DNA from: Candidatus Latescibacterota bacterium | GTDB taxonomy: Bacteria; Latescibacterota; UBA2968; GCA-2709665 | Direction: 5' to 3' | DNA: 64,000 bases | NCBI GenBank assembly: GCA_963667175.2 | Contig: CAXXXF010000004.1 | Span: 128,001 to 192,000, forward strand | Shown: one piece after another, positions 23,522 to 50,582 of the stretch | How positions within the stretch are numbered: the first letter of the stretch is position 1 | Layout: each line of letters begins with the position of its first letter | Position numbers and translations under genes: made by a program | The notes under the pieces: model-generated | What the model saw: the letters and a program-made list of their open reading frames with translations, nothing else | The model's database searches: none | What the model was told of the DNA's origin: nothing

Positions 23522-23534
23522 GGCTGAAGTCTAG

Positions 23535-34388: not shown

Positions 34389-35453
34389 ATGCCTACAACG
34401 GGATCACGAAGGTCGCAGGACGGTACCATTGAGCGGCCGGCCACATCTGCCGCCGATCATCTGCCACCGTTCCCCGAAGGATGGTACCTGGTCACAACCC
34501 GGCAGACCCTCCTTCGAGAGAAACTGATCGAGAAAACCTGGATGGGCGAGGAAATCGTCGCATGGTGCGACGAGGAAGGACGGATTTGCGTGGCCGACTC
34601 CATCTGCCCGCACCTGGGCTCTTCCCTGGGACCGGAGGTCGGCGGCAAGGTACGCGGGGGACGCCTTGTCTGTCCGTTTCACGGCTTCGAATTCGATACC
34701 ACCGGTCAATGCATTGCGACGCCGTACGCTCCGGCCGCAAAGGCCGCCAGACTGCAGATCTACGAAACCAGAGAAATCTTCGGCATGGTCTTCGCCTGGT
34801 TCGGGAGCGGCGGCCGCCCTTCGCACTGGGATCTTCCGGATGAACCGTCCGCCGGCGCCGAGTGGAGTGAATTGGGATTCCGTCGACTCCGCTTTCGCGG
34901 CCATCCCCAGGAAACGGCTGAGAACTCCGTCGACGTGGGACACCTGCGCTACGTTCACGGATACGACAACGTAAATCCGGTTGGTTCGGTAACGGTGGAC
35001 GGCGCCTACCTCAGGAGTCGTTTCGACTTCAGAAGCGTTCGCAGAGTCCTGGGTGTAAGGGTCTTCGAGTACGAAGTCTCGGCTGTCGCCCACATCCACG
35101 GACTGGGCTACTCTTTCGTCGAGATCCACGAGAAAACCATCGATATGCTCGCGAGATTGTGGGTCCTTCCGACACCGGTTGACGGCGACGTCATCGATCT
35201 CGTTCTGGCCGCCCAGCTGAGGGAATTACGTAAACCCCGACGGTTCGTCTCGGGCCTTAGGTTCCTGCCCTTGACGTTGCGGAACAAACTGATGAACCAC
35301 GTTCTTCTGTCACAGCAGAAACAGGACGTGCTGCAGGACGTGGCGATCTGGGAAAAGAAACGGCACCGGTCGCCCCCCAGGCTGTGCCGTTCCGACGGCC
35401 CCATCGGCGCCTACCGCCGCTACTGCCGGCAGTTTTATCCCGGCGGTTGTTAG
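34389..35453 (+). CDS. Rieske non-heme iron oxygenase, Neverland/DAF-36 or KshA-like
   Basis: CPHLG...CPFHG; ENSVDVGHLRYVH; C-terminal DVAIWEKK...DGPIGAYRRYCRQFY. Confidence 0.85.
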   Translation: MPTTGSRRSQDGTIERPATSAADHLPPFPEGWYLVTTRQTLLREKLIEKTWMGEEIVAWCDEEGRICVADSICPHLGSSLGPEVGGKVRGGRLVCPFHGFEFDTTGQCIATPYAPAAKAARLQIYETREIFGMVFAWFGSGGRPSHWDLPDEPSAGAEWSELGFRRLRFRGHPQETAENSVDVGHLRYVHGYDNVNPVGSVTVDGAYLRSRFDFRSVRRVLGVRVFEYEVSAVAHIHGLGYSFVEIHEKTIDMLARLWVLPTPVDGDVIDLVLAAQLRELRKPRRFVSGLRFLPLTLRNKLMNHVLLSQQKQDVLQDVAIWEKKRHRSPPRLCRSDGPIGAYRRYCRQFYPGGC

Positions 35454-35664
35454 CTATTAGCGGTTAGCTTTCAGCCAGAGGCAGAAACGTTAAAGACACC
35501 GACCCACCCACCGCAGCGCAAACTGTCATTTGGTGCGAAGAACTGTTTCTTCTGCTGCTCAGCGAAGCATCGGTAAAATTTCATGGCTCTTCATTTGTCA
35601 ACGTTCATCCCGTACCCGCGATTCTTCGCATGAATCCCGGCATTTCAACGGTTTTCCGTCGCCT

Positions 35665-37029
35665 TCAGCCCCTCGCCTTCCTGAATCCCCAGCCATACAT
35701 GATACCCCCGTAGTAGTTGAACCACCGTTTTGCCTCTGAATCGTCGAAGGGGTAATCCGCTCCGATCTGTATTGCAGTCGCGAGCCCGCTCACAAAGCAC
35801 GTCTCCTGGCTGTTGACCAGCGTATGGGCGCCGCAGTGCCAGGTCCGTTTCCTGCCCTGGATGAAGCGGAACAACGGAACGATCCATGCAACGTGGCGCA
35901 CATCGTGGACAATGTGCTGAAACCACCACCTGCCGATGATCTCTCGTTCATCAATCCGGCTGATCGGGTTGTAGGTCACCAGACAGGGCCTGTCGGACCG
36001 GTTCGCCCACGGTTGCTGGTTGTGCATGATATACGTGATTTCATAGTTGTCCGGTCTGGCGCCGTATTGTTCGATGTGATTGCTCCGCGTTGTGAGGGGT
36101 TTCACCTCGTTATCCGGAAGGACTGTGGCATCGGAGTGGACGATCGTATGGTTGTGGAGTTCGCTCTCGTATCGTATTGAGGAAAGAATATAGCGCTCCA
36201 GCATCGAGGGTCTGTTGAGCATCATCAGTGTCTGGTTCGCATTGCATGCGAAAATCACGTCGTCAAACGTCTCCTTAACACCGTTCTCGTCCTCGACCAC
36301 AACCTGGGACGACCCGCGGAACACCTTCCGGACAGGACGGTTAACGTGAATCCTGTCCCGGAAGCCGGCGGCCAGGTTCTCGTAGATGCGTCGCGTTCCC
36401 TGATCCCACGTCTGCATGGGCGTGGCGGTCTCGATATTGAAGAAATCGAGATATCTCGAGAAGAGCGCCGCAGGCATATCGAACACATTGGTCGCCATCA
36501 GGAAGTTGACGAACATGGGCTTCAGTACCTTATACCTGAAGTCCCCGGAAAACCCGGCAAAGTTCAGGACCGTCTCCATGCTGACGTAATTGAACGGATT
36601 GAGGGCATTCAGGAACGTTGACCGGGAGCGAGTCAGCCTGCCAAACCCATGCAGTCGCGTCAGAAGCCGCTGGAACTTTGCAATCTCGAATTGCAGTTCG
36701 TCTCTGATGTCGGAGTCGAAATCGTGCGCATAGGTGCCGCCGCGGTACTTCACGCTGTAATTGAATCTGGTATCGATCAGATCGATGCCGAACGACTCCA
36801 TCAGCAGCAGGATGTGCCGATATACCGATGGAATACAGGCAGTGACGGAAATGTCGAAGGGAATGGCGGCGCCGTCATCCTGCGGCATATCGACAGTGAT
36901 CGCATTCCCGCCGATCCGGTCCTCAGCCTCGAAAAGCCGGAAATCGAACCGGTCCGGGTGGTGATGCAGCGCCCACGCGGCCCCCAGACCCGATATGCCT
37001 CCGCCGACGATGGCGATGCGCCGTGGCAT
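35665..37029 (-). CDS. FAD-dependent oxidoreductase (COG2907-like)
   Basis: IVGGGISG, FEAEDRIGGNA, IQGRKRTWHCGA. Confidence 0.8.
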   Translation of the reverse strand: MPRRIAIVGGGISGLGAAWALHHHPDRFDFRLFEAEDRIGGNAITVDMPQDDGAAIPFDISVTACIPSVYRHILLLMESFGIDLIDTRFNYSVKYRGGTYAHDFDSDIRDELQFEIAKFQRLLTRLHGFGRLTRSRSTFLNALNPFNYVSMETVLNFAGFSGDFRYKVLKPMFVNFLMATNVFDMPAALFSRYLDFFNIETATPMQTWDQGTRRIYENLAAGFRDRIHVNRPVRKVFRGSSQVVVEDENGVKETFDDVIFACNANQTLMMLNRPSMLERYILSSIRYESELHNHTIVHSDATVLPDNEVKPLTTRSNHIEQYGARPDNYEITYIMHNQQPWANRSDRPCLVTYNPISRIDEREIIGRWWFQHIVHDVRHVAWIVPLFRFIQGRKRTWHCGAHTLVNSQETCFVSGLATAIQIGADYPFDDSEAKRWFNYYGGIMYGWGFRKARG

Positions 37030-37094
37030 TGTCCTTTCTCCCTCAGGCGGGCAGGTCAGTGTCGAAGGTGAAGTGGGCGGGGAAGGAGGTTTTC

Positions 37095-37545: not shown

Positions 37546-37588
37546 TTCCCCGGGGATGAGGTTCCCGCGCGAATTCGCGTCAGGCGGA

Positions 37589-38629
37589 CTAAAGAGGCTT
37601 ACGAGCCAGGAAACAGTACAGGGGCGTAAAGATACCCGCCTTGCCGCCCGAGATATAAGCCTCCGCAGTCCGGTCCAGGAGTCGGACGACTTCCGCAGAG
37701 CCCTTCGGAAAAAGCCGCAGTACTTCAGCCAGCTTCGATCCTGCGATGACCGCTTTGCGGCCCCACGGAAGCCTGCGCATGGCGTTCCCCAACGTCCCAT
37801 GGCGACTCTCCATGGGTTGATACCAAGGTATGGAGGGTCCAGGTCCTTCCTGAACGTCCCTGTCCATCGCTTCCATCACGTGGAATCCCGCGGCTTCGAG
37901 CGCGTGGTTGACTTCTCCGAAGGTCGCGACGTCCTTCAGCGCAATGCCGCGCATGAAATCCCGCTTGATGACCCGGTGCCGGTCGTCCTTCGGATTGAAC
38001 TGGTCCGTCAGACACATTTCCTGACCCCAGAACAGGGCCCCGGGTTTTAGCACGCGGTATACCTCCTCGAAGGCTCGTTGCTTGTCCGGCGCATGGCACG
38101 TTGACTCGATGGCATAACCCCGATCGAAGGTGTCGTCCTCGATTGTGCTCATGTCCATGAAGCTGCACGTCTCGAAATCGACCATGTGTTCGAGCCCCGA
38201 CTCGGCGATCAACCTCTTCGCCTTTTTCAACTGAATCTCACTGATGTTGATTCCCACGACCTTGACACCAGCCTCACGGACAACGCGGAGCATGGGGGCG
38301 CCGACTCCACAACCAACGTCGACCACCGTCATACCCTGTTGCAGGTCCAACTTGGAGATCATCACCCGCTGATGCCGGACGATGGACTCCTCCAGACTCT
38401 GATGAGGCGTAAGGGGCGCGAAGTGCAGGGACTCGGCCCAGCCCCACACCATTAACCCGCTGCAAAGGTCGTAATAGTTTTTCACTGTTTCAGTGTGATC
38501 GTACCCGGCCGCGCCAGCGGGTTCCGGCGCCGACCGCTCGAGCCAGCCGTCGAAGTGTCGCACTCGATGCGCGACGCTCGATCCCCGGAACGCTTCTCTC
38601 AGATCTCTCGACAGTTTGCCCAGGCGCAT
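37589..38629 (-). CDS. Sterol C-24 methyltransferase-like (ERG6/SMT family)
   Basis: YYD..., WGWAESLHFA, VDVGCGVGAP, YAIESTCHAP, EVYRVLKPG, IFTPLYCFLARKP match SMT regions I-IV and C-terminus. Confidence 0.88.
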   Translation of the reverse strand: MRLGKLSRDLREAFRGSSVAHRVRHFDGWLERSAPEPAGAAGYDHTETVKNYYDLCSGLMVWGWAESLHFAPLTPHQSLEESIVRHQRVMISKLDLQQGMTVVDVGCGVGAPMLRVVREAGVKVVGINISEIQLKKAKRLIAESGLEHMVDFETCSFMDMSTIEDDTFDRGYAIESTCHAPDKQRAFEEVYRVLKPGALFWGQEMCLTDQFNPKDDRHRVIKRDFMRGIALKDVATFGEVNHALEAAGFHVMEAMDRDVQEGPGPSIPWYQPMESRHGTLGNAMRRLPWGRKAVIAGSKLAEVLRLFPKGSAEVVRLLDRTAEAYISGGKAGIFTPLYCFLARKPL

Positions 38630-38666: not shown

Positions 38667-40694
38667 TCATATGGACAGTTCCCGTCTCTGCTCGGCGATG
38701 CGGAACTTCAGCTTCTTGCTCGGTTTCAGCGACGGAAACGGACTGAAACGGAGCTTGTACTTCGCCGGCGACACCTCAATCGTAAAGTAGTGCGCCAGCA
38801 TCAGCAAATTGGCCGCCAGGTGCAACTCCATCCACCGGGCGCCGAGACACGTGTGCGTGCCCAGCCCGTACGGGGCGTACCCGGGACTGCGATGCTCATG
38901 GCGCGGGGCCAGGTAGCGGTCAATGTCGAACTTGCAGGGGTCGGGAAAGACTTCGCTCATGTAATGTGTGGCGGTCATGGCGACGTGGATCCGCGCCCCC
39001 ACGGGCAGCTCGTAGTCCTCGACCACGCAAGTATTCATCACGTTCCGCATGGACATGGAGACGATTGGGTACATGCGCAGACACTCCATGAGGAAGCGGT
39101 GCGTCACGTCGATGTTGGCTGGGGTGAAATCCTCTCTCTCGGGGTCGCCCTTCGCGAACAGGGCATCTGCTTCGGCCCGGATTCTGGCGTAGAGGTCGGG
39201 CTGCGACGCCATGGCATAGACTACGAGGCTGAACGTATCGCCTAGGTACACGCTGGCAATCAAGGCCGCGGAAAAGGCGAAGAGCAGGTTGGACTCCGGA
39301 AGAAACTGCGGGTCCCTCGCGTGCAGGCTGAGGTAATCGTCCACGAGGTCCCGCGGGCTGTCCGCCCGTTGGGCGGGGGTATGGATACCCTGGATCCGCT
39401 GCATCAATGTGTCCAGGGCTTTCGCCCGGCGTCTCATGCCCGGGGTGTTCAGCGCGAATCGGGGCAGGAGCTTGGCGATGTGCACGCTGAGGGCACGTTC
39501 CTTGTAGGCCATCAGGTCGCCCATGAGGTCCTGGGTATCGACGCTGAGGAACAGTGGCGAGAGCTGGGCGTTCACCATCTCCCGGCACATGGACGTGGCG
39601 CGGTAGGAGTCCCCAACCGTCAAGCTGGCCATGTACTCACGTCCATGATTGTAGAGCTGGTCCAGCTGCCCTCCCAGCCTCCCGGCGGAAAAGGCCGGCG
39701 ACAAGAACTTGCGAAGCCGGAAATGATCGGCGCCGTCCAGGGCGGGCAGGACGCCGGACGCGCCGTAGACCTTCTCGAAGTCGCTGAAGTAGTCCCTGAC
39801 TCTCAGGTACATTCGCCCGCGCTTGTGCACCCAGCGGTTTGTCTCGAGTCCGGCCAAGAAGATCATGGGCTCCGAAAAGGGAGGACGGATCTGGAACACC
39901 GGACCGTACTCCTCCGCCAGGCTCCCGAAGAGGGCGTTCAGATTGCCGTCTCGAACGTGCGGGTTCATCAGCAGTTTGGGTAGCGAAACCGTCGGAATCT
40001 TCCTGGTAAGGGGTGGACGTTGAAGGGCCGGGCCGGTGAGGTTCTGAGAGACCGCAGCGGCCAGGGAGCGGCCGATCGGAGTCAAATTGCAGATGAATTC
40101 GATGCGCTCCTCCGCCTCGTCGTCGAGTTGGTAGATGAGTCGAAAGACATCGCACGTATTGACGAGACCGATGACGAGGACGTCCCGCGGATGGGGGATC
40201 TCATTCTCGAAGATCGCGCGGCTGATCCGCGATTTTATGAACTCACCGGGTGTGGCTTCCTCGGAACTGCCCACCACTCTCGTCCAGGCGCCGCCGCGAG
40301 CCAGCGTCCAGAACTCGCCGTCGTGGTACTCCAGAATCTTCAGGTCGACCAGGTGGTCCAGGGTCCAGTCGATGACGGACTCCGCGCGGGAGGCGAGACG
40401 TTCTACCCAGTACTGAGCGTTGTGTTGAACCGGCTCCTCCGCGATTTCCTTCAGGCTGGTGTCGAGGATGGAGTTGCCCGTTTCCGTCGGATCCACGAGG
40501 AAGAGCGACTCTATGTCCGTGTCGATCCGCGACAGGAGGGAGAGTTCCGCCAGTACGGCGCCGGCTACGGCACAGTTCAGATGCCAGCCGGGTACCTGAT
40601 GAAAATACCCGTTCTCCTCGTTGAGGAGCATCAGGATGAGCTCATCGTGCAAACACAGCGTCTCGGTCGCCCGATCCTCGTTCTTGACAGCCAT
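38667..40694 (-). CDS. GPP34 (GOLPH3-like) domain fused to cytochrome P450
   Basis: N-terminal LHDELILMLL...AGAVLAELSLLSRI; P450 ECLR, FDIDRY, YGLGTHTCLG. Confidence 0.82.
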   Translation of the reverse strand: MAVKNEDRATETLCLHDELILMLLNEENGYFHQVPGWHLNCAVAGAVLAELSLLSRIDTDIESLFLVDPTETGNSILDTSLKEIAEEPVQHNAQYWVERLASRAESVIDWTLDHLVDLKILEYHDGEFWTLARGGAWTRVVGSSEEATPGEFIKSRISRAIFENEIPHPRDVLVIGLVNTCDVFRLIYQLDDEAEERIEFICNLTPIGRSLAAAVSQNLTGPALQRPPLTRKIPTVSLPKLLMNPHVRDGNLNALFGSLAEEYGPVFQIRPPFSEPMIFLAGLETNRWVHKRGRMYLRVRDYFSDFEKVYGASGVLPALDGADHFRLRKFLSPAFSAGRLGGQLDQLYNHGREYMASLTVGDSYRATSMCREMVNAQLSPLFLSVDTQDLMGDLMAYKERALSVHIAKLLPRFALNTPGMRRRAKALDTLMQRIQGIHTPAQRADSPRDLVDDYLSLHARDPQFLPESNLLFAFSAALIASVYLGDTFSLVVYAMASQPDLYARIRAEADALFAKGDPEREDFTPANIDVTHRFLMECLRMYPIVSMSMRNVMNTCVVEDYELPVGARIHVAMTATHYMSEVFPDPCKFDIDRYLAPRHEHRSPGYAPYGLGTHTCLGARWMELHLAANLLMLAHYFTIEVSPAKYKLRFSPFPSLKPSKKLKFRIAEQRRELSI

Positions 40695-40889
40695 CGGCCT
40701 TCGCCTCCCGTCAAAATCTCGGTCCCGCAAAGCCATTTACCGTTGATGCGCCTCTAACAAATATAACGATCATCGTTGATGGGGCAAGTCTTAATCGTAA
40801 CAAAAACAATGTCAAAGGCGGGCAACCACAAGGGTTGTCCCTACAAATTGCGACACTTGCGCGGATTTCGCTCAATCCCGCACGGGAAC

Positions 40890-41202
40890 CAGATGCAGAC
40901 GGATGGCGTAGCGTGCGGGCACGACCATCAGCAGAATTGACGTGGCGATGACGATGCCGAAACCGAGCGACGCCGCGAAGGGGACGAGGAACTGCGCAGG
41001 ATGACGCCGACAACATCCTCATGCGCCTGCGTCGGCCTTCCTCGTCGCGCCAGGCGACGATGTCCTCCCCCAGCCAGGTCTTATCGATCAACTGCTTCCG
41101 GAGAAGGGAATCCCGGGTTGCGACGAAATACCGCCCCTCGGGGAATGCCGGCAGCTCATCCATTCGATTCAAGGCAGGCAGTTGGGAGCTCTTGGTTTGC
41201 AT
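40890..41202 (-). pseudogene. Relic: Rieske oxygenase N-terminus joined to RND permease C-terminus
   Basis: LPAFPEGRYFVATRDSLLRKQLIDKTWLGEDIVAWRDEEGR resembles the 34389 gene; QFLVPFAASLGFGIV resembles the end of the 44650 gene. Confidence 0.75.
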
Positions 41203-41689: not shown

Positions 41690-42087
41690 GTCATCTCGGT
41701 TCGAGACGATCGATGCGCCCTTCCTGGAAGTCCACTTCCAGCCAAGGGTCGGCCGTGTCGCGGCGGAACTGGTAGAGTTGGGCGAGCATCTGAGCGGCTA
41801 CCTCCTGCAAGTCGGGGTCGTCATTCCGATCGCCAGGAACTGGCGTGGCCAGCCTCTGGTCAGTCTGGCCACGGCGGTCAACCTGATCGGGCGGACGACC
41901 ACGAACCAGGGGCTTCGGGTGCGGGCGGAAATCGACAAGCGATCCTATCCCAAGGGCGTGGTCGTCAAGGACGAGCAAATGGAGCGGATCGATCTCTCGC
42001 CCCATGAGTTTCACGGGGACTGAAACTACACGATCCGCCCCGCATCGGCCCGCCGTAGTGAATCATCTGATTCGTGACAATGCCTTA
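41690..42087 (+). pseudogene. ISAzo13-family transposase C-terminal remnant
   Basis: NWRGQPLVS...IGRTTTNQGLRV...YPKGVVV...FHGD*NYTIRP. Confidence 0.8.
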
Positions 42088-42179
42088 CCCTGCCCCTTGG
42101 GTGTGTTCGGCGCCTTGACAAGAGGGCCAAAAGGCGCCTCATTGCAGACTATGTTCGTATAGCGGGCATCGCGGCTCTG

Positions 42180-43238
42180 ATGACCGTCACGGCGCGAACC
42201 GCACGGAGGAGAACCATGCGCCTGCCATTTCGGAGGTTGTCCGCCCTTCTCCGCGCCGGGACCACCCCGGCGCCGACGAGCATCCGGTTCCGGAACGACT
42301 GGAAATGGGAGGGACCGGCCGCGCCGCTGCTGATGGCGCTCGACCGCGGCTGGTACGCCGAGGCCGGCCTCGACGTCGCCGTGGACACCGGAATGGGCTC
42401 GCGGGAGGCGATCCCTCGGGTGGCCCACGGCGGCAACTGGCACCTGGGCTCCGCGGACATCAACTCGCTCATCAAGTTCCGGGACCGGAACCCCGACCTC
42501 CGCCCCACCGCCGTCATGATGGTCTACAACGAGCCGCCGTTCGCGATCATCGGCCGCAAGTCGCTGGGCGTGACCGCGCCGAAGGACCTGGAAGGCAAGA
42601 TTCTCGGCGCCGCGGCGTCGGACGGCGCCTTCGCGCAGTGGAACACGTTCGCGAGGGCGAACGGCATCGACGCCTCCAACGTGACCATCGAGATCATCGG
42701 CTACCCGGTGCGCGACGCCAGTCTCGCGGCGTGCGACATGCTCGCGGCCGGCAGGGTGGACGCCGTCGCCGGCTACTCGTTCTCGTCGCTCCTCTACCTG
42801 AAGGCGAGAGGCGTGAGCGACGAGGACATCTCGCTCATCCGCATGGTCGAGCACGGCCTGGACCTCTACGGCAACGTCATCATCGTCAATCCGGAGTTCG
42901 CGCAGGCCAACCCGGAGGCGGTGCGAGCGTTCGTGGCGGTCACGGTGCGCGGGTACCTGGAGACCGCGAAGGACCCGAAAGGCGCGGTCAAGCACGTGCT
43001 GAACCACAACGACACGGTGCGCGAGGAGGTGGAGCTGGAGCGGATCGAGATGGCGCTCATGCAGAACATCATCACCGACGAGGTGCGCGCGAACGGGTTC
43101 GGTGCGGTCGACATGGAGCGCCTGGAGCGATCGATCGACCAGATCGCGGAAACCTACGGGTTCACCAACCGGCCGGAGGCCGCCGACGTGTTCGACCCGC
43201 AGTATCTGCCGCCGAAGGCGGAACGAATGGCGCCTTGA
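42180..43238 (+). CDS. NMT1/THI5-like ABC substrate-binding protein, orphan, signal peptide unclear
   Basis: DWKWEGPAAP, GWYAEAGLDV, DLEGKILGA, DLYGN; no cognate permease nearby. Confidence 0.75.
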   Translation: MTVTARTARRRTMRLPFRRLSALLRAGTTPAPTSIRFRNDWKWEGPAAPLLMALDRGWYAEAGLDVAVDTGMGSREAIPRVAHGGNWHLGSADINSLIKFRDRNPDLRPTAVMMVYNEPPFAIIGRKSLGVTAPKDLEGKILGAAASDGAFAQWNTFARANGIDASNVTIEIIGYPVRDASLAACDMLAAGRVDAVAGYSFSSLLYLKARGVSDEDISLIRMVEHGLDLYGNVIIVNPEFAQANPEAVRAFVAVTVRGYLETAKDPKGAVKHVLNHNDTVREEVELERIEMALMQNIITDEVRANGFGAVDMERLERSIDQIAETYGFTNRPEAADVFDPQYLPPKAERMAP

Positions 43239-43249
43239 GGACATTAGCC

Positions 43250-44407
43250 ATGGAGCCGTCCCCATCAGCGTATGCCGAAGGGTATGCCAGGGCGCGTCGT
43301 CACGATCAGGCGGCGGCCGACAACTACGTCAGGCACACCACCATCGGCGACCCCATGCTCGACCCGATCATGGAAGAGCTCTCTTCGCTGTCTCCCGCCG
43401 TTATGCACCAATTCATCTGGGCGGGCATCGAGCAGCAGCATGACGTTCTGCGCAAGGCGCCGCAGGTGCTGCGCGACTTCTTCCAGGCTCTCGACGAGCC
43501 TCCTCCCTGGGTCGATCACGATACCTTTCGTCCTGGGGTTCGCGCCTTCCACGAAAACGTGGACCTCATGCTCGTCGCGTTCGTCACGGGGGTGCTGATC
43601 GAGGGCTTTTCCACGCTAATCGCCAAGTCCTTCAACATCACCGGGCGAACGGCCAGGACCAAGAGGCGCCTCCAGCAGAACAACCGCCAGTTGATGGACG
43701 TATTCTATCCCGGCGGCCTGCAGCGGGAGAACGACGGATGGAAGTTGTCCACGCGCGTTCGCTTCGTCCATGCTCGAATCAGGGCATTGCTGAGCAAGTT
43801 CGAGGAGTGGGATTACGGAGCCTGGGGTACGCCGATCAGCGCAGCCCACCTCGGGCTCGCCATCTCCATCTTTTCCCAGCGCCTGCTGGAATACGCGCTA
43901 CGGGTCGGCGGACGCTTCACCGAGGAAGAAAAGGAGAGCGTGCTCGGTGTCTGGCGCTACAGCGGCTATCTCATGGGGATCCCCGAAACCATCCTCTACA
44001 CCACCGGCGCCGAGGCCAAGAAAATCTACGAGGTCGGATTCATGTGCGAGCCGCCGCCGGACGCCGATTCGATCGCCGTGGCGAACGGGTTGATCCGGGC
44101 CATCCCGTCGGTTGCGGAGGTGACGGACCCGGCCGAAATAAAGAGCGTGACCAATTTGGCCTACCGACTGTCGAGAGCCCTCATCGGAAACCGGCTCGCC
44201 GACCAGTTCGAGTATCCGAATACGCCCGTCATCGGGATGTTGTTCTTCTTCCGGATGAAGCAACGCATTCTGCGAATGCTGAAGGGCGGGAAATCGGTGA
44301 GACTGGACAATTTTTCCCAGCTTCTCCAGATCTCCGCGTATGACGATTACGGGTTGGCCTACGAGCTGCCCGACCACGCAAAGCACTCCATGTCGAGTCG
44401 GTGGTGA
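43250..44407 (+). CDS. MpaB/rubber-oxygenase (DUF2236) family heme oxygenase-like protein
   Basis: PPWVD, RVRFVHARIR, WGTPIS, WRYSGYLMGI; ATG at 43250 after GAGG. Confidence 0.8.
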   Translation: MEPSPSAYAEGYARARRHDQAAADNYVRHTTIGDPMLDPIMEELSSLSPAVMHQFIWAGIEQQHDVLRKAPQVLRDFFQALDEPPPWVDHDTFRPGVRAFHENVDLMLVAFVTGVLIEGFSTLIAKSFNITGRTARTKRRLQQNNRQLMDVFYPGGLQRENDGWKLSTRVRFVHARIRALLSKFEEWDYGAWGTPISAAHLGLAISIFSQRLLEYALRVGGRFTEEEKESVLGVWRYSGYLMGIPETILYTTGAEAKKIYEVGFMCEPPPDADSIAVANGLIRAIPSVAEVTDPAEIKSVTNLAYRLSRALIGNRLADQFEYPNTPVIGMLFFFRMKQRILRMLKGGKSVRLDNFSQLLQISAYDDYGLAYELPDHAKHSMSSRW

Positions 44408-44649: not shown

Positions 44650-47600
44650 TTACCGGACACGAACCAGGCGCAAACGGATCGCGTAAAGCGCAGGAATGAT
44701 CATCATGAGTATAGCCGTCGTCAATAGAATGCCGCAGCCCAGCGATGCGGCAAATGGGATCAGGAACTGGGCCTGGATTGCGCGTTCGAGGATGAGGGGC
44801 GTGAAGCCGAGAAAGGTTGTCACGGAAGTGAGCATGATCGGACGAAAGCGGCCTTTGGCGCCCTCGATGATCGCGGTTCGCGCCGGGGCCCCGTCCCTGA
44901 GTTTCTGATCGATGAAGGTGATCATGACCAGGGAATCGTTCACGACCACCCCGCTCAGACCGAAGATGCCCATGAAGGATACCGCGCTCAAGGCCACGCC
45001 CAGGACCCAGTGACCCAGGATCACCCCGATGAACCCGAAGGGGATGACGGCCATGATGACGAAGGGTTTGGTATAGGAGCGGAGGGGGATGGCGAGGAGC
45101 GCGAAGATCATGATCAGGGCGATGGCGAACCCGCGGTACAGGGCATCCAGGGACTCGAGCTGCTGTTGCTGCTCCCCTCCGAAGCTGTACGTCAGGTCAG
45201 GGTTCCCGGCGGTCAGGTCCGCGAGGATCGAATTGGCCAGGACGTCGTTGGCTTCGTTGCCGGAAATCACCGAAGCATCGACGTCCGCCGAGACCGTGAC
45301 GACGCGCTGACCGTCCTTCCGTCGAATGGCCGGCGCCGACATTTCCGATCTCATCTCGGCGACGCTGGTTATCGGAACCTCGGCCCCGTTCGGCGTGCGG
45401 ATCAGATACCCTTCGATATCCGTGATGGCGTTCCTCTCGTCGGCGGGCAGCCGCACGTAGGCGCGTACCTCTTCCCGGCCGCGCTGCACCCGGACCGCCT
45501 CCACGCCGAAGAACGCGGCGCGCGCCTGCCCGGCTAACTCGTCGAGCGTGAGGCCCAGAGTCCGCGCTTCCGGCCGCAGCTCGAACTGTACTTCCGGGAT
45601 GCCCGGGGTATGATCCGAACGGATGTCATAGACGCCTCCCACTTCGCGGAGACCGTCGACTACGGAATTCGCAATCCGGGCGAGGCGCTCCGGGTCCGGA
45701 TGAGTCAGCACGGCTTCGACCGGATTGCCCAGGTCGAAGACCTCGCTGCTGAAGGTGATGCCGCGCGCGTAGGGCAGCACACCCACCTCCTCCCGCCATG
45801 CCTGCACGACCTCTCCGGTGGAGATCTGTCTTTGCTGCGCGCCCAGGAGCTTGAATTCGATGGTGGCGATATTGGCTTGCGGATTGAGGGTGGGGGACGG
45901 ATTGAGCCCCCCCTCGAGTCTCGATCCCTGTCCGACGGTCACCGTTACGCCCGTCAACAGCGGTGGCGCATCCTCGGGCCTGGCGCGCGAAAGTCGTTCG
46001 ATGACCCGGCGCCCCGCCGCCTCAAGTTCCCGGGCCACTTCATAGGTCCTCGAGGCGGTGGTCCCGTCGGGCATCTCCAATTTAACCGTCGCAAAGTCGC
46101 CTTCCCCCTCGTCGGCCAACGTGGTCGGGACGATTCCCGCCGGGATCAGGGAAATACTCAGCACGAGCATTCCCACGGCCCCCGCTATCGTCACAGCGGG
46201 CTGGTCCGTCGCGAATTGCAGCGCCCGGTCCAGGGGGCCTTGCACGAACCTGTTCAGCAGCGCGTTTACACGGCCCTGGATGCGGGTGAAGAACCGGTCG
46301 AAGGCATTTTTCGGCTTCCATTTCGGTCCGGGCAGGTGGGAAAGGTGGTTCGGCAAGATCAGCACCGATTCGATCAGTGAAACCAGCAGGATGGCGATCA
46401 TGATGATCGGTAGCGCTCGCCAGACCTCGCCGATGCCGCCGGGAATGAACAGCAACGGGACGAAGGCCACCACCGATGTGAGCACCGCGAACGTCAACGG
46501 CACCTTGATCCGGCGTACGCCGCGGATCGCGGCCGTCAACCCGGGTGTTCCACGACTGCGTTCGTATTGAATGTGCTCGGCCACGACGATGGCATCGTCG
46601 ACGATGACCCCAATGGCGAGGACAAAGGAGAAAAGGCTGATGGTGTTGATCGCCACGCCGAATACCATCATGGCGGCCAGGGCGCCGATACCCGAAACGG
46701 CGAGCCCCACGGCAACCCACAGCGCAAGCCGGATCTCCAGGAACAGACTGAGCGCGATCAGCACCAGCAACAGGCCCAAGATTCCGTTCTTGAGGAGAAG
46801 ACCAACGCGTTCCTCGTAGATTTCGGAATCGTCATTCCACAGGGTGACGCCCACGCCGTCCGGCAATGCCGGGATCACCTCGCTCGCCAGGTGCTCGCGG
46901 ACGGTCGTGGCGACGTCCATCACCTGTTCGCCTTCCGCCCGGTACACCTCCACGAAGACGGCGGGCCGGTTCTGATGCCGCACGATCAGGTCGGCTTCCT
47001 GGAAACCGTCGCGGACCTTGGCGATATCCCCGAGGCGCAGGACGGTGCCGTCACGGCCGCTGAGAAGGACGATCTCCTCGAAGTCCTGCTGATCGTAGTT
47101 CTGGCCGAGGGTCCGGACGCGCACCTGGGACTCCCGGGTATTGATACTTCCGGCGGACAAGTCCAGGGAACTGCGTCGAACCGTGTTCGCGACGTCGTTG
47201 AGCGTAAGTCCGAGGGCTCTCAACCGATGAAGCGGAACTTCGATGGAGATTTCGTAATTCCTGACGCCGCTGACAGCCACCTGGGACACGGAAGGAAGCG
47301 TCTTGAGTTCGTCCTCGATCTGGTTCGCCAGTTCCTTCAGCGAGCGCTCGGCCACGTCCCCGTAAACAATGAGCCGCATCATACTCTGGCGATTGTTCAT
47401 CTCCCAGAACAGAGGGCGTTCGGCGCCGCCAGGGAACGTCTGTATACGATTGACCGCAGACTCGATATCGTCCACCGCCCGGGCCATGTCCGTATCGTAA
47501 TCCATCTGAACCCGCACGGAGGCCATGCCGGGCGCCGCTACGGACTTGACCGCTTTCACGTTATCCAACCCGCTGACCTGATCTTCGATCTTGACGATGA

Positions 47601-47823
47601 TTGACTCCTCGATCTCCTCCGGCGTAGCGCCGGGATAGGCCATCGAGACTTCGACGTGATAGAAGGCGGTCGTCGGCCACGCCTGCCGCTCCAGGCCGGT
47701 CAGCGACACCAGCCCGAAAGCGACAATGGCGCACATCAGCAGATTGGCGGCCACCCTGTTGCTCGCCATGTAGGCGATCGGGCCGGGAGGTTCTTTATGG
47801 GTATTGCCGTTATCGGTACTCAT
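44650..47823 (-). CDS. RND efflux permease (AcrB family)
   Basis: GVIVDDAIVVAE, GVVVNDSLV, RFRPIMLTSVTT. Confidence 0.92.
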   Translation of the reverse strand: MSTDNGNTHKEPPGPIAYMASNRVAANLLMCAIVAFGLVSLTGLERQAWPTTAFYHVEVSMAYPGATPEEIEESIIVKIEDQVSGLDNVKAVKSVAAPGMASVRVQMDYDTDMARAVDDIESAVNRIQTFPGGAERPLFWEMNNRQSMMRLIVYGDVAERSLKELANQIEDELKTLPSVSQVAVSGVRNYEISIEVPLHRLRALGLTLNDVANTVRRSSLDLSAGSINTRESQVRVRTLGQNYDQQDFEEIVLLSGRDGTVLRLGDIAKVRDGFQEADLIVRHQNRPAVFVEVYRAEGEQVMDVATTVREHLASEVIPALPDGVGVTLWNDDSEIYEERVGLLLKNGILGLLLVLIALSLFLEIRLALWVAVGLAVSGIGALAAMMVFGVAINTISLFSFVLAIGVIVDDAIVVAEHIQYERSRGTPGLTAAIRGVRRIKVPLTFAVLTSVVAFVPLLFIPGGIGEVWRALPIIMIAILLVSLIESVLILPNHLSHLPGPKWKPKNAFDRFFTRIQGRVNALLNRFVQGPLDRALQFATDQPAVTIAGAVGMLVLSISLIPAGIVPTTLADEGEGDFATVKLEMPDGTTASRTYEVARELEAAGRRVIERLSRARPEDAPPLLTGVTVTVGQGSRLEGGLNPSPTLNPQANIATIEFKLLGAQQRQISTGEVVQAWREEVGVLPYARGITFSSEVFDLGNPVEAVLTHPDPERLARIANSVVDGLREVGGVYDIRSDHTPGIPEVQFELRPEARTLGLTLDELAGQARAAFFGVEAVRVQRGREEVRAYVRLPADERNAITDIEGYLIRTPNGAEVPITSVAEMRSEMSAPAIRRKDGQRVVTVSADVDASVISGNEANDVLANSILADLTAGNPDLTYSFGGEQQQQLESLDALYRGFAIALIMIFALLAIPLRSYTKPFVIMAVIPFGFIGVILGHWVLGVALSAVSFMGIFGLSGVVVNDSLVMITFIDQKLRDGAPARTAIIEGAKGRFRPIMLTSVTTFLGFTPLILERAIQAQFLIPFAASLGCGILLTTAILMMIIPALYAIRLRLVRVR

Positions 47824-47833
47824 GTATCCGTAC

Positions 47834-49045
47834 TCATGGGGTCTGGTCGACTTCCGTCTGGACACGCATGCCTTCGGTGGCAAATAAGATCCCGCCGGTG
47901 ATTACCGCCAGACCGTGTTCCAATGAACCCGTCACGAACACTTCATCGTCGGCACGCTGCAATACGCGAACCGGAACGAGCTTCACAACGCCGGCTTTCA
48001 CCATCCAGACCTCGTTGCCCGGTTTCAGCGAGGCCCGCGGCATCTTGAAATAGCTGTCCAAAACAAGCCCTTCTATCTCCACCTCGACGAATTCGCCCAC
48101 CAGAAGCGGTGGATTGCCGCCGGGACCGGCGTTCCCGTCCGACGGGTCGCCTGCCGTAAGCGGATCCGGTACGCGGACGATGACGTCGATGGTGCGCGTC
48201 TGCTCGTCGAGGGATGCCTCGGCCCGATCCACGTAACCCTGCCAGGCGTACCTCACGTCGCCGTACCGGGCGGTCACCCTGGCCGGGACGTCACGTTTGC
48301 CGTCTCCTGCCTTCAGGTCCCAGAGTCCAGGGATCATCGCGGCATCGGAATCGGACAGAGGCACGACCACCTCCACCGCGTCGGCAGCGAACAGCCGGCC
48401 CACGGGCTGGCCGGGGCTCACGACCTGCCCGACGTCGACGGATTCATCGCGGACAAGGCCGTCGAAAGGCGCGGTTATCCGGGTCCTTGAAAGGGCAAGC
48501 CTGGCATCGTCGAGCCTGGCCTCGTCGCGGCTCAGCGCGGCCCGTGCCGCGTTCAACTGAGGTTCCCTGAGCGTGAGAGGATTCGCATCGGACGGAGGCG
48601 TCTCATCTCCGTGCGGCGCGGCGTAGCGTTCGTACTGCGAGCGTGCGATGGATGCCTGCTCCTGCTCCCTTAGAAAAGCAACCCGGCTCGCCGCGACAGT
48701 GGCCTCCGCTTCCTGCACCCGAAACTGGTAATGGACCTCTTCGATGCGGAAAACCGTCTGGCCCGCCCTGACCCTTCCTCCACTCTTGAATCCCGGATCC
48801 ACCCAGACAACCCTGCCTCCCACCTGGGGGACGACAGCGACCTCCGCGCTTGGCCTCACCGTGCCGGATCCGAAAATCGGAATGGATCCGGACCCGGATG
48901 AAACCGGACCGGTTTGCACGAAGGGCGCCTGGGCGGCCTGTTCGGTCCGGGTGGGTTCGGGCGCCAGTGAAATCAACAGCGCAGCCAGCGCCACGGAGAC
49001 CACGACAATCGCGCCGGCAGCAAAAGCACTCGATTTGCGGGACAT
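47834..49045 (-). CDS. RND periplasmic adaptor (MFP)
   Basis: N-terminal TM; VVPQVGGRV, RTRITAPFDG. Confidence 0.9.
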   Translation of the reverse strand: MSRKSSAFAAGAIVVVSVALAALLISLAPEPTRTEQAAQAPFVQTGPVSSGSGSIPIFGSGTVRPSAEVAVVPQVGGRVVWVDPGFKSGGRVRAGQTVFRIEEVHYQFRVQEAEATVAASRVAFLREQEQASIARSQYERYAAPHGDETPPSDANPLTLREPQLNAARAALSRDEARLDDARLALSRTRITAPFDGLVRDESVDVGQVVSPGQPVGRLFAADAVEVVVPLSDSDAAMIPGLWDLKAGDGKRDVPARVTARYGDVRYAWQGYVDRAEASLDEQTRTIDVIVRVPDPLTAGDPSDGNAGPGGNPPLLVGEFVEVEIEGLVLDSYFKMPRASLKPGNEVWMVKAGVVKLVPVRVLQRADDEVFVTGSLEHGLAVITGGILFATEGMRVQTEVDQTP

Positions 49046-49052
49046 GTAAGAT

Positions 49053-50582
49053 CTACTCCGTTGGAGGTCGGGAGATTCCTTGGGTCGGCAGATCCTGCCC
49101 GAGGAACTCGGGGGTTCCAGGGGTCCACGCGCCTCCCAGCGCACGATGAAGCGCAAGGCGGGCAAGACCCAGGTCGCGCTCCGCCGCGGCAAGCAATGAT
49201 TCCGCGGCCAGCCCGGTCTGCGTTGCCGTCAGGAGCGCCTCATAGTCAACCACACCCGATAGATACCGTTGCTCCTGCAATTCTGTTTCCGCATGCGCCG
49301 TATTCGACAGCGAGGCCAGCAGCGAATGGCGACGGCGGCTGGCGGCCAGCCCCGAAAGGGCGGCTTCAATCTCGTTGGCGGCGCTAACCACGGATCTTCC
49401 GTAGGCCGCGACCGCTGCTTTCAATCTCGCCCGTGCAAGCGCAACGTTGCCGCGCAGCCGGGCGCCCTGGAATACGGGTCCGAGCAGATTCATGCTCAGG
49501 TTCCGGAACCATTGTTCCGGGTTGAACCACTCACTCGATTCCGTGCTCTGCAGCCCGATGGAACCGTGCAGGGACAGTCTTGGCGCCAGGTCCGCGCGAC
49601 GCGCGCCAACCTGATACCGGGCCCCGTCCATCCGCTGCTTTGCCGCGATCACGTCGGGGCGCTGCGTCAGAAGACGGGTCGGGATGCCCGGTGGAACCGG
49701 TTCCAGGGCGCTGGTCTGCGTCAGGGAATCGGGCAGAATGTGCGCAAGATCCGCCTGGTGATCTCCCAGAAGCACGCGGAGCCGCCCCTCCGCGTCGGCC
49801 AGCAGAGCTTCGATCTGCGGCAGTTCCGCCTGGGCGTTGCGCGCTTCCTGCCGCGCCCTGTGGAGGCCGCTCAAATCAATCAATCCGCGGTCGTAACGAG
49901 ACCGGGCCAGCGCCTCCCGTTGCTGGTGGATCTCTGCGATTTCGCCAGCCAATCTCCTCTGGTGGCGCAGGTTGACAATTTCAAGGTAGGTCCGCACGGT
50001 CTCGGACAACACGCCCATTCGAGCCGTCAGATAGTCAGCCTCCGAAGCCAGGCGTTCGGCGGCGGCGGCGAGACCGTCGTTCCGGTTCCGGCCCCAGAAG
50101 TCCACTTCGTAGGCGAATTCCACGGCAGCGGTGTACGTCGTAAGTCCGAGTCGATCGGGGAGGACGATTCCGGACGCGCCGCCCGCTCCCGAACCCAGCC
50201 CCAACTCGTCCAGCTGCGCGCCGATACCCGCGTTGGTGGGCGCGTCGAATTCGCTGACGCCGGCCGACGGCTGAAGGGTTGGAAACAACGGCGCCCTGGC
50301 GATGCGCGCGCGCGCCCTGGCCTGATCGACCCGTGCCACCGCGCCGGCCAGGTCGAAGTTGGATGCCAGAACTCCTTCGATAACCCGGTTGAGGGCCGGG
50401 TCGGCGAACGCCTTCCACCACTCGCGCCGTTCGATCGAACCGGCAACGTCACCTCCGGCGGACCCATCGGTGAGCTTCGCCACCGGGTCGGAAACGGTAG
50501 GCGTCGAGCGCGGCGCCAGGGCGCAGGCGGAAACGAGAAAACCGACAATGGCCGGCGTCAGCCCTTTTCGCGAAATAGACAT
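49053..50582 (-). CDS. Outer-membrane efflux lipoprotein (OprM/NodT family)
   Basis: Lipobox VSAC; WWKAFADP, YEVDFWG, RPDV, LHRALGGAW. Confidence 0.9.
   Translation of the reverse strand: MSISRKGLTPAIVGFLVSACALAPRSTPTVSDPVAKLTDGSAGGDVAGSIERREWWKAFADPALNRVIEGVLASNFDLAGAVARVDQARARARIARAPLFPTLQPSAGVSEFDAPTNAGIGAQLDELGLGSGAGGASGIVLPDRLGLTTYTAAVEFAYEVDFWGRNRNDGLAAAAERLASEADYLTARMGVLSETVRTYLEIVNLRHQRRLAGEIAEIHQQREALARSRYDRGLIDLSGLHRARQEARNAQAELPQIEALLADAEGRLRVLLGDHQADLAHILPDSLTQTSALEPVPPGIPTRLLTQRPDVIAAKQRMDGARYQVGARRADLAPRLSLHGSIGLQSTESSEWFNPEQWFRNLSMNLLGPVFQGARLRGNVALARARLKAAVAAYGRSVVSAANEIEAALSGLAASRRRHSLLASLSNTAHAETELQEQRYLSGVVDYEALLTATQTGLAAESLLAAAERDLGLARLALHRALGGAWTPGTPEFLGQDLPTQGISRPPTE

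Follow-up and report, generated by a model that had tools for sequence, protein, structure and literature searches.

The window, a stretch of 64,000 nucleotides of bacterial DNA, contains a gene module of sponge symbionts which probably remodels acquired sterols, has been spread horizontally and comes with a membrane lipid transporter. The source of the sterols is most plausibly the sponge host. The core of the module consists of a sterol-methyltransferase-family gene (SMT-2), a GPP34-cytochrome P450 fusion, a KshA-type Rieske oxygenase and an FAD amine-oxidase-like enzyme, and this grouping is far beyond chance because the core recurs beside SMT in related loci.

The genes of the window were identified by ORF calls and by Pfam/NCBIfam profile scans, and all genes named in a first-pass annotation were found at 34389-50582. 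Position 34389 is the start of the gene for the KshA/Neverland-type Rieske non-heme iron oxygenase (34389..35453, plus strand, 354 aa; Rieske 61 bits, KshA_C 84 bits), and 17 bp upstream of it is an iron-containing alcohol dehydrogenase gene (Fe-ADH, 33089..34372, plus strand, 147 bits). The rest of the core is on the minus strand: the FAD-dependent amine-oxidase-fold oxidoreductase (35665..37029, 454 aa; Amino_oxidase 63 bits, GGGISG motif), SMT-2 (37589..38629, 346 aa) and the GPP34-P450 fusion, or GPP34_L (38667..40736, 689 aa; GPP34 89 bits, p450 119 bits). None of the four translations has an N-terminal hydrophobic segment or a signal peptide, and with their motifs intact the module enzymes appear to be functional proteins of the cytoplasm. 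The cluster contains neither a ferredoxin nor a reductase partner.

SMT-2 matched Sterol_MT_C at 56.2 bits (cut-off 21.7 bits), and its translation shows each of the four SMT regions. It is 42% identical to SMT-1 of a true sterol operon, and class I methyltransferase domains were also matched in the profile scan. Region I of SMT-2 is FMVWGWGESLHFAP family-wide, with the Met in 81/81 and the Val in 77/81. Relative to SMT-1, Tyr is replaced by Met and Glu by Val, and SMT-2 departs in the same way from what we take to be the canonical Region I motif. Judged by its sequence, SMT-2 is a genuine SMT-family member, as had been proposed, and a paralogue distinct from the operon SMT-1. The changes in Region I suggest that its substrate or its product differs from that of the operon-encoded enzyme.

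At least 458 SMT-2 relatives were found in genome contigs, and the locus counts use the best 80, which are 70-86% identical. The GPP34-P450 gene was found beside SMT in 76 of these 80 loci and in 59 of the 60 with full 10-kb flanks, the Rieske gene in 66 and 51, and the FAD oxidoreductase gene (76-87% identity) in 41 and 30, respectively. An RND-superfamily lipid transporter was located within 10 kb of SMT in 60 of the 80 loci and in 51 of the 60. The co-location on which the first-pass annotation had made its proposal depend is therefore found in other genomes. Twelve phyla are named in the record titles of the 80 best loci. Identities of 70-87% for SMT-2 and 66-91% for the RND protein are seen between genomes with RpoB identities down to 55-59%, and since the module proteins are far more alike than RpoB, the module has been passed horizontally among unrelated sponge-associated bacteria. 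Branches in the SMT-2 tree are very short across 12 phylum labels, and the labels change 20 times where 11 changes would be the minimum. The SMT-2 type is patchy in the phylum (25 of 168 genomes), and within the window's genus 5 of the other 14 genomes have it.

The most constant neighbor of SMT is the fusion, which points to a lipid-modifying role. Its GPP34 domain is at residues 29-229 and its p450 domain at residues 438-676. The translation contains an ExxR motif and the heme Cys ligand within YGLGTHTCLG, and the AF2 model (pLDDT 81, pTM 0.75) has a complete P450 fold. Fatty-acid P450s (oleate-bound CYP184A1 and P450 BM3) tie with CYP51 among the best fold matches; the P450 was ruled out as a CYP51, and no close characterized sterol-acting relative of it was found. 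The alignment of GPP34 with GOLPH3 was too weak to count (E 0.09), and in it Ala is at the position of Arg90, presumably the residue needed for PI4P binding. The two-domain architecture was described by Ferreira 2025 (PMC11706023), who reported that GPP34-P450 proteins are present only in sponge symbionts and expressed in A. aerophoba, and who proposed PI4P binding and phagocytosis control. The window protein is a member of this GPP34_L group, alike in architecture and likewise confined to sponge symbionts of many phyla, whereas here the fusion is tied to an SMT.

In the Rieske protein, the CPH..CPFH and DVGHLRYVH motifs of the cluster and iron sites are intact, and the Rieske and KshA_C domains are shared with KshA and Neverland/DAF-36. 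Its nearest Atlas clusters carry the automatic name cholesterol 7-desaturase. Among solved structures its closest matches are KshA proteins (89 bits), aligned only over residues 7-190; compared with KshA, the window protein is shorter, is matched over its N-terminal 190 residues only, and has no KshB-like reductase or catabolic gene nearby. The protein was ruled out as SdmA (36 bits on the SdmA model, cut-off 600). Its earlier description as a Neverland/KshA-type enzyme holds for the domains but not for orthology, as the protein appears to be orthologous to no characterized sterol enzyme. Solved relatives of the FAD enzyme were LkcE (95 bits), which presumably acts on a polyketide, and 2b9w ('putative aminooxidase', 42 bits), which we take to act on fatty acid as a double-bond isomerase. 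No close characterized sterol-acting relatives of the Rieske and FAD proteins were found.

The transporter genes are all on the minus strand and encode an AcrB-type RND permease (44650..47883, 1077 aa; ACR_tran 536 bits), a periplasmic adaptor (MFP, 47834..49192, 452 aa; TIGR01730 RND_mfp 153 bits, cut-off 95) and a NodT-type OMF (49053..50582, 509 aa; TIGR01845 247 bits, cut-off 210; OEP 135 bits). Among the 80 best SMT loci, the AcrB-type gene was found in 40, in most cases immediately upstream of the P450 gene and in the same orientation, the MFP gene in 22 and the OMF gene in 15. The transporter is kept while its type varies by lineage, AcrB-type in the window and MMPL/sterol-sensing-domain (SSD) type elsewhere; the 60 fully flanked loci comprise 34 with the AcrB type, 10 with MMPL/SSD type a and 7 with type b. 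In some loci the module, or a set of its paralogues, has a TPR protein, a LolA-like protein and MMPL/SSD transporters beside it. The window pump scored 18.5 bits on the HpnN model (cut-off 752). AcrB-type pumps are generic exporters, and no route for sterol uptake was found; both points count against the sterol reading.

MpaB and Fe-ADH are local additions outside the conserved module. The MpaB/Lcp-family oxygenase-like gene (43200..44407, plus strand, start approximate; MPAB_Lcp_cat 74 bits) is part of an ORF open from 42305, with the domain at residues 415-641 of ORF 42305-44407. Its true start is probably near 43.2 kb. A paralogue of 350 aa on contig C2, adjoining an MMPL/SSD transporter and a LolA-like gene, aligns from ORF residue 356 onward, while a weaker similarity already sets in at residue 294. 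Since MpaB was near SMT in 1 of the 80 best loci, its earlier inclusion in the cluster is not supported. Fe-ADH is lineage-specific: it was present in only 4 of the 80 (L003, L005, L009 and L073; 92-93% identity), and the three of these four genomes that the RpoB search covered are the closest kin found (RpoB 92-95%). Another gene, orf163 (40711..41202, minus strand), had no Pfam match. Over its first 55 residues it shares 58% identity with the Rieske protein (residues about 10-64), and its matches in other loci all land on Rieske genes (56/56), which makes it a probable rearrangement scar with a copy of the Rieske N-terminus.

The module is tied to sterols since it abuts a true sterol operon in Nitrospirales, where it is contiguous with an SE-OSC fusion, CYP51, ERG24, an SdmA homologue (407-414 bits), SdmB and a second SMT. 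Two metagenome contigs repeat this arrangement, and 9 of the 80 best SMT loci have at least one de novo sterol gene. The first-pass annotation had noted that no cyclase is in the window, and this extends to the whole genome (95.2% complete, 18 contigs, 4.75% contamination), in which profile searches found no SQHop_cyclase N or C domain and no SQS_PSY, and SHC-type and SE-OSC-type queries gave zero tblastn matches. Without squalene synthase, squalene epoxidase or either cyclase, sterols would have to come from outside, and acquired sterols are favored as the substrate. To this extent the suggestion that the cluster modifies host or dietary sterols stands as a prediction, but not with MpaB as a conserved part. 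An OSC-type match was present in 6 of 49 module-bearing genomes, and 35 of the 49 lack both OSC-type and SHC-type matches. The window genome nevertheless has two tandem ERG4/ERG24 genes, a family found in 34 of 50 module-bearing genomes and 0 of 14 control genomes.

It is unlikely, though not negligibly so, that the module serves in detoxification, in which toxic terpenoids, steroids or lipophilic sponge metabolites of host or neighbor are modified and expelled by the RND pump and sterol tailoring is not the purpose. The tripartite pump of the window is an exporter of the common AcrB/NodT type, the families of the P450, Rieske and FAD oxidoreductases are ones that typically modify xenobiotics, and horizontal spread among co-resident symbionts fits a resistance-like trait. 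However, an SMT-family SAM-dependent C-methyltransferase would be unusual as a detoxifying enzyme, the Nitrospirales module is joined to a biosynthetic sterol operon, and the transporter elsewhere is of the MMPL/sterol-sensing-domain type, no drug pump. We find it improbable that the substrate is an unsaturated fatty acyl chain or polyprenoid, methyl-branched and desaturated like the methyl-branched lipids of sponge microbiomes. Against a non-sterol lipid stand Sterol_MT_C, the four SMT regions and the identity to SMT-1, the physical linkage to OSC, CYP51, ERG24 and SdmAB, the ERG4/ERG24 genes in 34 of 50 genomes, and the sterol-sensing domains of the alternative transporters. Its support comes from the CMAS match of the methyltransferase (72 bits, profile scan), 2b9w among the solved relatives of the FAD enzyme, and CYP184A1 and P450 BM3 among the top P450 fold matches; pairs of a methylase and an FAD-desaturase are also known in bacterial furan fatty-acid synthesis.

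That the GPP34-P450 is released as a host-manipulation effector (Ferreira 2025), binds host PI4P and blocks phagosome maturation, its neighbors being incidental, is in our view highly improbable. Eukaryotic GPP34 binds PI4P, and the fusion is expressed and restricted to sponge symbionts, yet in 76 of the 80 best loci it apparently shares an operon with SMT and a lipid pump, it has no signal peptide, and a P450 requires heme, oxygen and a redox partner. The main text of Ferreira 2025 (PMC11706023), from which the words 'sterol' and 'methyltransferase' are absent, mentions no such neighbors. This reading and sterol remodelling are compatible, not exclusive. There is hardly any chance that sterol synthesis is complete and de novo, with the cyclase and squalene genes merely lost to incomplete assembly. 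The assembly consists of 18 contigs and is 95% complete, and symbiont SMTs are read mainly as de novo synthesis in the available text of Brown 2023 (PMC10070321) and Kelly 2022 (PMC9531527), but four independent families (SQS_PSY, SE, OSC and SHC) are missing from the window genome, and an OSC-type match is missing in 43 of 49 module-bearing genomes, many of them single-chromosome records.

In the preferred reading, the remodelling of acquired sterols, a sterol would reach the cell envelope, and the four soluble enzymes would work at the inner face of the cytoplasmic membrane, where GPP34 may dock the P450 as the N-terminal anchor does in eukaryotic P450s. Judging by their families, the P450, Rieske and FAD enzymes may hydroxylate, desaturate or shift double bonds, and the side-chain unsaturation required by SMT could thus arise. 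SMT-2 would transfer methyl groups from SAM to the sterol side chain; in the available text of Brown 2023 (PMC10070321), 8 of 10 symbiont SMTs methylated sterols in vitro. The conserved linkage suggests that an RND-superfamily pump, tripartite AcrB-type here and MMPL/sterol-sensing-domain type in other phyla, would carry the product to the outer membrane or return it to the host.

As far as the available text of the papers goes, symbiont sterol clusters comprise the 'CSG' of Kelly et al. 2022 (PMC9531527), ERG24-CYP51-LSS flanked by an SMT, and the sdmAB-containing SMT clusters of Brown et al. 2023 (PMC10070321). Habitat, phyla, SMT and reported horizontal transfer are all alike, and the Nitrospirales module directly adjoins one such cluster. 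In contrast, the window SMT is a separate paralogue, with an altered Region I and 42% identity to the operon SMT, and stands without OSC, CYP51, ERG24 or SdmAB neighbors, in a genome without any cyclase, and its partners, the GPP34-P450, KshA-type Rieske and FAD enzymes and the pump, are unnamed in the available text of both papers. The sdmA/sdmB-bstABC operon of Methylococcus capsulatus, for sterol demethylation and RND-based sterol transport (Zhai et al. 2024, PMC10942540), also pairs Rieske-containing sterol-type enzymes with an RND-superfamily transporter. Sterol transport across the envelope is known there, and the MMPL/SSD, TPR and LolA-like genes of some loci are alike. However, the window pump is AcrB-type with adaptor and OMF, not MMPL/HpnN-like, the window Rieske protein is not SdmA, and M. 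capsulatus makes its own sterols. A Chlamydiae MAG has an SMT without other sterol genes, for which methylation of host-acquired sterols was raised (available text of Brown et al. 2023, PMC10070321). Both are bacterial SMTs in genomes without sterol synthesis, but the Chlamydiae gene stands alone and comes from another phylum, whereas here the SMT belongs to a transferable unit with three oxidoreductases and a transporter.

No paper linking symbiont SMTs with GPP34-P450 was found. The earlier remark that no such pathway is described needs qualification, since the parts are in print (Brown 2023, Kelly 2022, Ferreira 2025), while their linkage is unpublished as far as found. Symbiont SMTs, sterol clusters and GPP34-P450 were known separately, and what is new here is their genomic linkage in one module.

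The ORF listing and the Pfam/NCBIfam profile scans of the window recovered every gene that the first-pass annotation had listed for the cluster. On the plus strand, an Fe-ADH gene (33089-34372) is followed by a gene for a Rieske oxygenase with a KshA_C domain (34389-35453), and the minus strand carries the genes for an FAD amine-oxidase-fold protein (FADox, 35665-37029), the sterol methyltransferase homologue SMT-2 (37589-38629) and a GPP34-P450 fusion (38667-40736). An MpaB/Lcp-family gene lies on the plus strand at about 43.2-44.4 kb, and the pump is encoded on the minus strand by an AcrB-type RND permease (44650-47883), an adaptor (MFP, 47834-49192) and a NodT-type outer-membrane factor (OMF, 49053-50582). 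An N-terminal hydrophobic segment is absent from all four enzymes (SMT-2, GPP34-P450, the Rieske protein and the FAD protein). The pump is flanked at 50886-55423 by a sodium:solute symporter gene (50886-52847, plus strand) and a heparinase II/III gene (52880-55423, minus strand), a pair that probably reflects the use of host glycosaminoglycans; a heparinase paralogue on contig C15 of the same genome is 62% identical to that of the window. A stretch rich in mobile and defence genes (15649-31052), with a GC content down to 0.51-0.53, lies directly upstream of the cluster and contains a group II intron reverse transcriptase/maturase (15649-17019), two AbiU2 HEPN genes (18126-18863 and 29382-30116), a WD40-repeat protein of 683 aa (21505-23556) and two DDE transposases (23795-25306 and 28457-29125).

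When one genome per species was scanned, SMT-2 had at least 458 relatives, and the loci of the best 80 (70-86% identity) were analysed by tblastn with the window proteins at a coverage of at least 40%. These loci are labelled as Latescibacterota, Gemmatimonadota, Chloroflexota/Dehalococcoidia, Nitrospirota, Nitrospinota, Acidobacteriota, Binatota, Rhodothermota, Verrucomicrobiota, Actinomycetota, Thermodesulfobacteriota and Gammaproteobacteria. GPP34-P450 was found in 76 of the 80 loci, and in 59 of the 60 among them with full 10-kb flanks. The corresponding counts were 66/80 and 51/60 for the Rieske gene, 41/80 and 30/60 for FADox, 40/80 and 34/60 for the AcrB-type RND, 22/80 and 21/60 for the adaptor, and 15/80 and 15/60 for the outer-membrane factor. 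The usual order, on one strand, is (OMF-MFP-)RND, P450 and SMT, with Rieske and FADox after the SMT. The co-location of the core with the SMT in other genomes, on which the proposal of a sterol-tailoring system had been made to depend, was thus observed, and comparative genomics upheld that proposal for the core. It did not do so for MpaB (1/80; 1/60) and Fe-ADH (4/80; 3/60), which were rejected as conserved parts of the module and, judged by these counts, are local additions.

SMT-2 has a class I SAM-dependent core (Methyltransf_11, 65 bits; Methyltransf_25, 62 bits; CMAS, 72 bits) that carries the VVDVGCGVGAPM motif, and its residues 285-345 match Sterol_MT_C (PF08498) with 56.2 bits against a cut-off of 21.7. 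All four SMT regions were found; Regions II-IV are near-canonical and Region I is altered. Region I reads FMVWGWGESLHFAP in SMT-2 versus F[YF]EFGWGQSFHFAP in SMT-1, the paralogue inside true sterol operons (SMT-1 of six loci), and its Met and Val are conserved in 81/81 and 77/81 SMT-2 sequences, respectively. Since Region I of yeast ERG6 affects the number of methyl groups added, SMT-2 may differ from SMT-1, to which it is 42% identical, in substrate or product. SMT-2 is a genuine member of the SMT/ERG6 family, with a putative role in the methylation of a sterol side-chain double bond. P0057 was rejected as an SMT-Rieske fusion because only the last 50 KshA_C positions lie ahead of the SMT, and it is probably a read-through gene call. 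A metagenome scan with SMT-1, meant to link the module to assayed enzymes, recovered the JGIcombinedJ30088 contigs _10005958 and _10000241, but its 80 loci did not include JGIcombinedJ30088_10000835.

In the Rieske protein, the motifs for the 2Fe-2S cluster (CPH..CPFH) and the mononuclear iron (DVGHLRYVH) are intact, and KshA_C scored 84.3 bits against a cut-off of 23.3. It scored 36.4 bits on the SdmA model (NCBIfam NF052579) against a cut-off of 600, and solved KshA proteins cover residues 7-190 only, so that both an SdmA identity and full-length KshA orthology were rejected. In Nitrospirales genomes, a separate Rieske gene beside ERG24 scored 407-414 bits on the SdmA model, compared with 34-35 bits for the module Rieske. 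The Pfam scan of the window genes found no reductase gene in the cluster that could be a KshB-type partner, and none of the genes expected of an aerobic 9,10-seco steroid catabolic cluster (KstD, KshB, HsaA-D, side-chain beta-oxidation) was among its matches. The Atlas neighbours of the Rieske protein bear the automatic name cholesterol 7-desaturase, a generic family name taken as a lead only.

The P450 keeps its Cys ligand and ExxR motif, and the FAD protein keeps GxGxxG. With PF05719 at residues 29-229 and PF00067 at residues 438-676, the fusion protein falls within the GPP34_L definition of Ferreira et al. 2025, and the fusion is retained in 74 homologues at a coverage of at least 85%. The P450 was rejected as a CYP51, for which the best match was 61 bits over residues 432-661 only. 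A separate CYP51-like gene is present in the sterol operons; it is 80-82% identical among Nitrospirales loci and gave matches of just 22-27% to the module P450 genes. An AF2 model of GPP34-P450 (pLDDT 81, pTM 0.75) retrieved CYP184A1, M. capsulatus CYP51, BM3 and CYP3A about equally in a fold search (TM 0.74-0.82), with CYP51 no closer to the module P450 than fatty-acid P450s. The match of the GPP34 domain to GOLPH3 (E 0.09-0.13) was too weak to support a comparison of the PI4P-binding residues. The nearest solved relatives of the FAD protein are LkcE and 2b9w ("putative aminooxidase"), the latter presumably a fatty-acid double-bond isomerase; this relatedness would suit a desaturase or isomerase role and does not point to a particular substrate. 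The same genome encodes another GPP34-P450 fusion, which is 674 aa long and shares 35% identity with that of the window; its gene adjoins an Acyl_transf_3 gene on contig C4, about 30 kb upstream of the window (locus L089, 9912-13574), and a GPP34-only gene is located on contig C15 near 499.5 kb.

The module was also found next to genes of sterol synthesis. The Nitrospirales locus L033 carries, in order, CYP51, ERG24, an SdmA homologue, an SdmB-like epimerase/3-beta-HSD protein, SMT-1, FADox, an outer-membrane beta-barrel protein, Rieske, SMT-2 and GPP34-P450, and its SE-OSC gene (a 1269-aa ORF) adjoins CYP51 just outside the locus. In sister loci of the sponge-symbiont Nitrospirales, squalene epoxidase and OSC form a single polypeptide that is about 1150-1220 aa long and has a DCTAE motif; the fusion, with SE, SQHop_cyclase_N and SQHop_cyclase_C domains, was located at 2928-6575 of L024 and also in L027, L028, L030 and L038. 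On two metagenome contigs (L101 and L102), GPP34-P450 and SMT-2 lie directly beside SMT-1, SE-OSC, CYP51 and ERG24, and L101 carries SdmA and SdmB too. At least one gene of de novo sterol synthesis was present in 9 of the 80 loci. This operon adjacency, together with the Sterol_MT_C domain, the identity between SMT-2 and SMT-1 and the sterol-sensing-domain transporters at other loci, points to a sterol as the probable substrate of the module.

The pump of the window is of the tripartite HAE1 type (ACR_tran, 536 bits; RND_mfp, 153 bits versus a cut-off of 95; outer_NodT, 247 bits versus a cut-off of 210). A BstA/HpnN-type permease was rejected (MMPL, 22 bits; HpnN, 18.5 bits versus a cut-off of 752). 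An MMPL/SSD gene is present elsewhere in the same genome (locus L088) and beside the module in 20 of the 80 loci. Loci without the AcrB-type pump mostly have an MMPL-family transporter with sterol-sensing/Patched-domain matches, in two types of 10/80 loci each, and some transporter of the RND superfamily was found within 10 kb in 51 of the 60 fully flanked loci. Nine of the 60 have no such transporter, and seven of these nine (six Nitrospirales and L050) hold sterol-synthesis genes instead. The MMPL/SSD gene of L088 encodes a protein of 769 aa that shares 61% identity with the Nitrospirales type flanking the module. It belongs to a second lipid-transport set on contig C2 (L088, 4965-10673), whose other members are an MpaB paralogue of 350 aa, a LolA-like protein and a protein of 416 aa without a Pfam match. 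In 15/80 loci, with either AcrB-type or MMPL-type transporters, the module is accompanied by a TPR protein of about 258 aa that the window lacks. It lies near 11.1-11.5 kb in L006, L007, L020, L036, L040, L054, L057, L070 and L072, and was also found in L016, L018, L019, L022, L034 and L039. The sterol-binding BstC of M. capsulatus has likewise been described as TPR-like.

The sterols could be made by the organism itself or acquired. The genome of the window (95.2% complete, 4.75% contamination, 18 contigs) gave no match to either squalene-hopene/oxidosqualene cyclase domain in a profile search, no tblastn match (E 1e-3) with SHC-type or SE-OSC-type queries taken from related loci, and no match to the squalene/phytoene synthase family, for which the control search was positive in 8 of 14 named genomes. 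The absence of a cyclase, remarked on in the first-pass annotation for the window, therefore extends to the whole genome. OSC-type matches (185-191 bits, ORFs of 1132-1269 aa) were found in 6 of 49 module-bearing genomes and were the only ones to fit SE-OSC in both size and score; DCTAE was confirmed in five loci, of which a single one belongs to the set of 49 genomes. Strong SHC-type matches occurred in 13 module-bearing genomes, and these were rejected as OSC on account of DxDDT, the SHC-type motif, which was present in 12/12 checked. Neither type was found in 35/49. Contig C3 of the window's genome (L087, 7994-10401; C3:540996-543406) carries a tandem pair of genes that resemble sterol reductases of the ERG4/ERG24 family (394 and 380 aa; 114 and 112 bits), and this family was present in 34/50 module-bearing genomes versus 0/14 controls. 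For the window's genome, we infer that sterols are acquired and not self-made.

The distribution of the module was compared with the relatedness of its carriers. Of the 49 module-bearing genomes, two have an RpoB 95% identical to that of the window genome, one 92% (partial match), four 79-80% and ten 64-69%, and the remaining genomes mostly 55-59% (best segment); across the same genomes, identities were 70-87% for SMT-2 and 66-91% for RND. The RND (91%) and MpaB (93%) of the window are closest to those of the L006 genome, whose RpoB is only 65% identical, while the RND of the nearest kin by RpoB (95%) is only 84% identical. Hence, the cluster is a mosaic. For Fe-ADH, FADox, MFP and OMF, the nearest sequences are those of the true kin (RpoB 92-95%; L003 and L073 were compared). 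In an SMT-2 tree of 82 rows built with a quick method, end branches were about 0.05, compared with 4.0 to the paralogue SMT-1. The tree required 20 changes of phylum label, where the minimum is 11 and shuffled labels averaged 44, and the labels, which come from submitters, may not be consistent. Between module genes, pairwise identities correlated with r of 0.36-0.70, a measure inflated by shared ancestry, and 0/500 permutations were as high. In the window's phylum, 30 of 168 species genomes had an SMT match, 25 of them of the SMT-2 type (at least 75% identity; window genome included); in its genus, 8 of 14 other genomes had a match, five of the SMT-2 type; and in eleven families of the phylum a match was found in none of 39 genomes. 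On these comparisons, the core is a conserved, transferable module, shared horizontally across genomes labelled with 12 phyla.

An ORF of 163 aa (orf163, 40711-41202, minus strand) overlaps the start of the GPP34-P450 gene, and over its first 55 residues it shares 58% identity with the N-terminus encoded by the Rieske gene, which lies 6 kb away. It was rejected as an independent gene, as it resembles a duplication scar; it is probably a scar of duplication or rearrangement left when the MpaB segment entered between the RND and P450 genes. Between orf163 and the MpaB domain, a long ORF on the minus strand (42063-43265) overlaps another on the plus strand (42305-43200); neither has a Pfam match, and both are 93-95% conserved, in L006 only.

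Several parts of this system have been published separately. Brown et al. 2023 (PMC10070321) reported that 8 of 10 sponge-symbiont SMTs methylated desmosterol and that two SMTs from an A. aerophoba metagenome made 24-isopropyl sterols. They also described SMT clusters that contain homologues of erg and sdmAB, and for a Chlamydiae MAG they suggested the methylation of host sterols. In Ircinia symbionts, Kelly et al. 2022 (PMC9531527) described ERG24-CYP51-LSS clusters that had been transferred horizontally and are flanked by an SMT, and an sdmAB-bstABC sterol operon with an MMPL-type transporter was described by Zhai et al. 2024 (PMC10942540). The main text of Ferreira et al. 2025 (PMC11706023) mentions neither sterol nor methyltransferase, and a 2025 PNAS paper treats it as not established whether SMTs alkylating demosponge sterols reside in the sponge, the symbionts or both. 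The first-pass annotation knew of no pathway with this combination, and although the parts are known, no paper that brings together GPP34-P450, SMT and RND of sponge symbionts was found in the literature searched, which covered few subscription journals and lay outside the supplements of Brown, Kelly and Ferreira. Supplementary Table 4 and Data 1 of Brown and Fig. S11 of Ferreira may already contain these neighbours.

The predicted function of the module is sterol remodelling and transport. The 24-isopropylcholestane and 26-methylstigmastane biomarkers derive from the unusual alkylated demosponge sterols, and the site of synthesis of these sterols is an open question. For this question the module offers a concrete, clonable gene set: a distinct SMT paralogue whose substrate-region motif is altered, accessory oxidoreductases, which could ready its substrates, and a transporter through which sterols could be exchanged with the host. 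For the sponge-symbiont-specific GPP34-P450 proteins it suggests an alternative, testable function. With its 12 phylum labels, the module is also an example of a lipid-remodelling trait that genomes in one host niche share by horizontal transfer. A bolder reading, which we consider improbable, is that SMT-2 and the three oxidoreductases would be the missing machinery that builds the unconventional "sponge" sterol side chains from host sterols inside the symbionts, for example by C-26 methylation, or by repeated alkylation to 24-isopropyl or 26-methyl skeletons. The pump would then return the products to the sponge, and GPP34, instead of being a host effector, would serve the bacterium as a domain for membrane docking or lipid handling. 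If this were true, the sterane biomarkers that are used as the oldest evidence of animals would be products of a mobile bacterial gene module.
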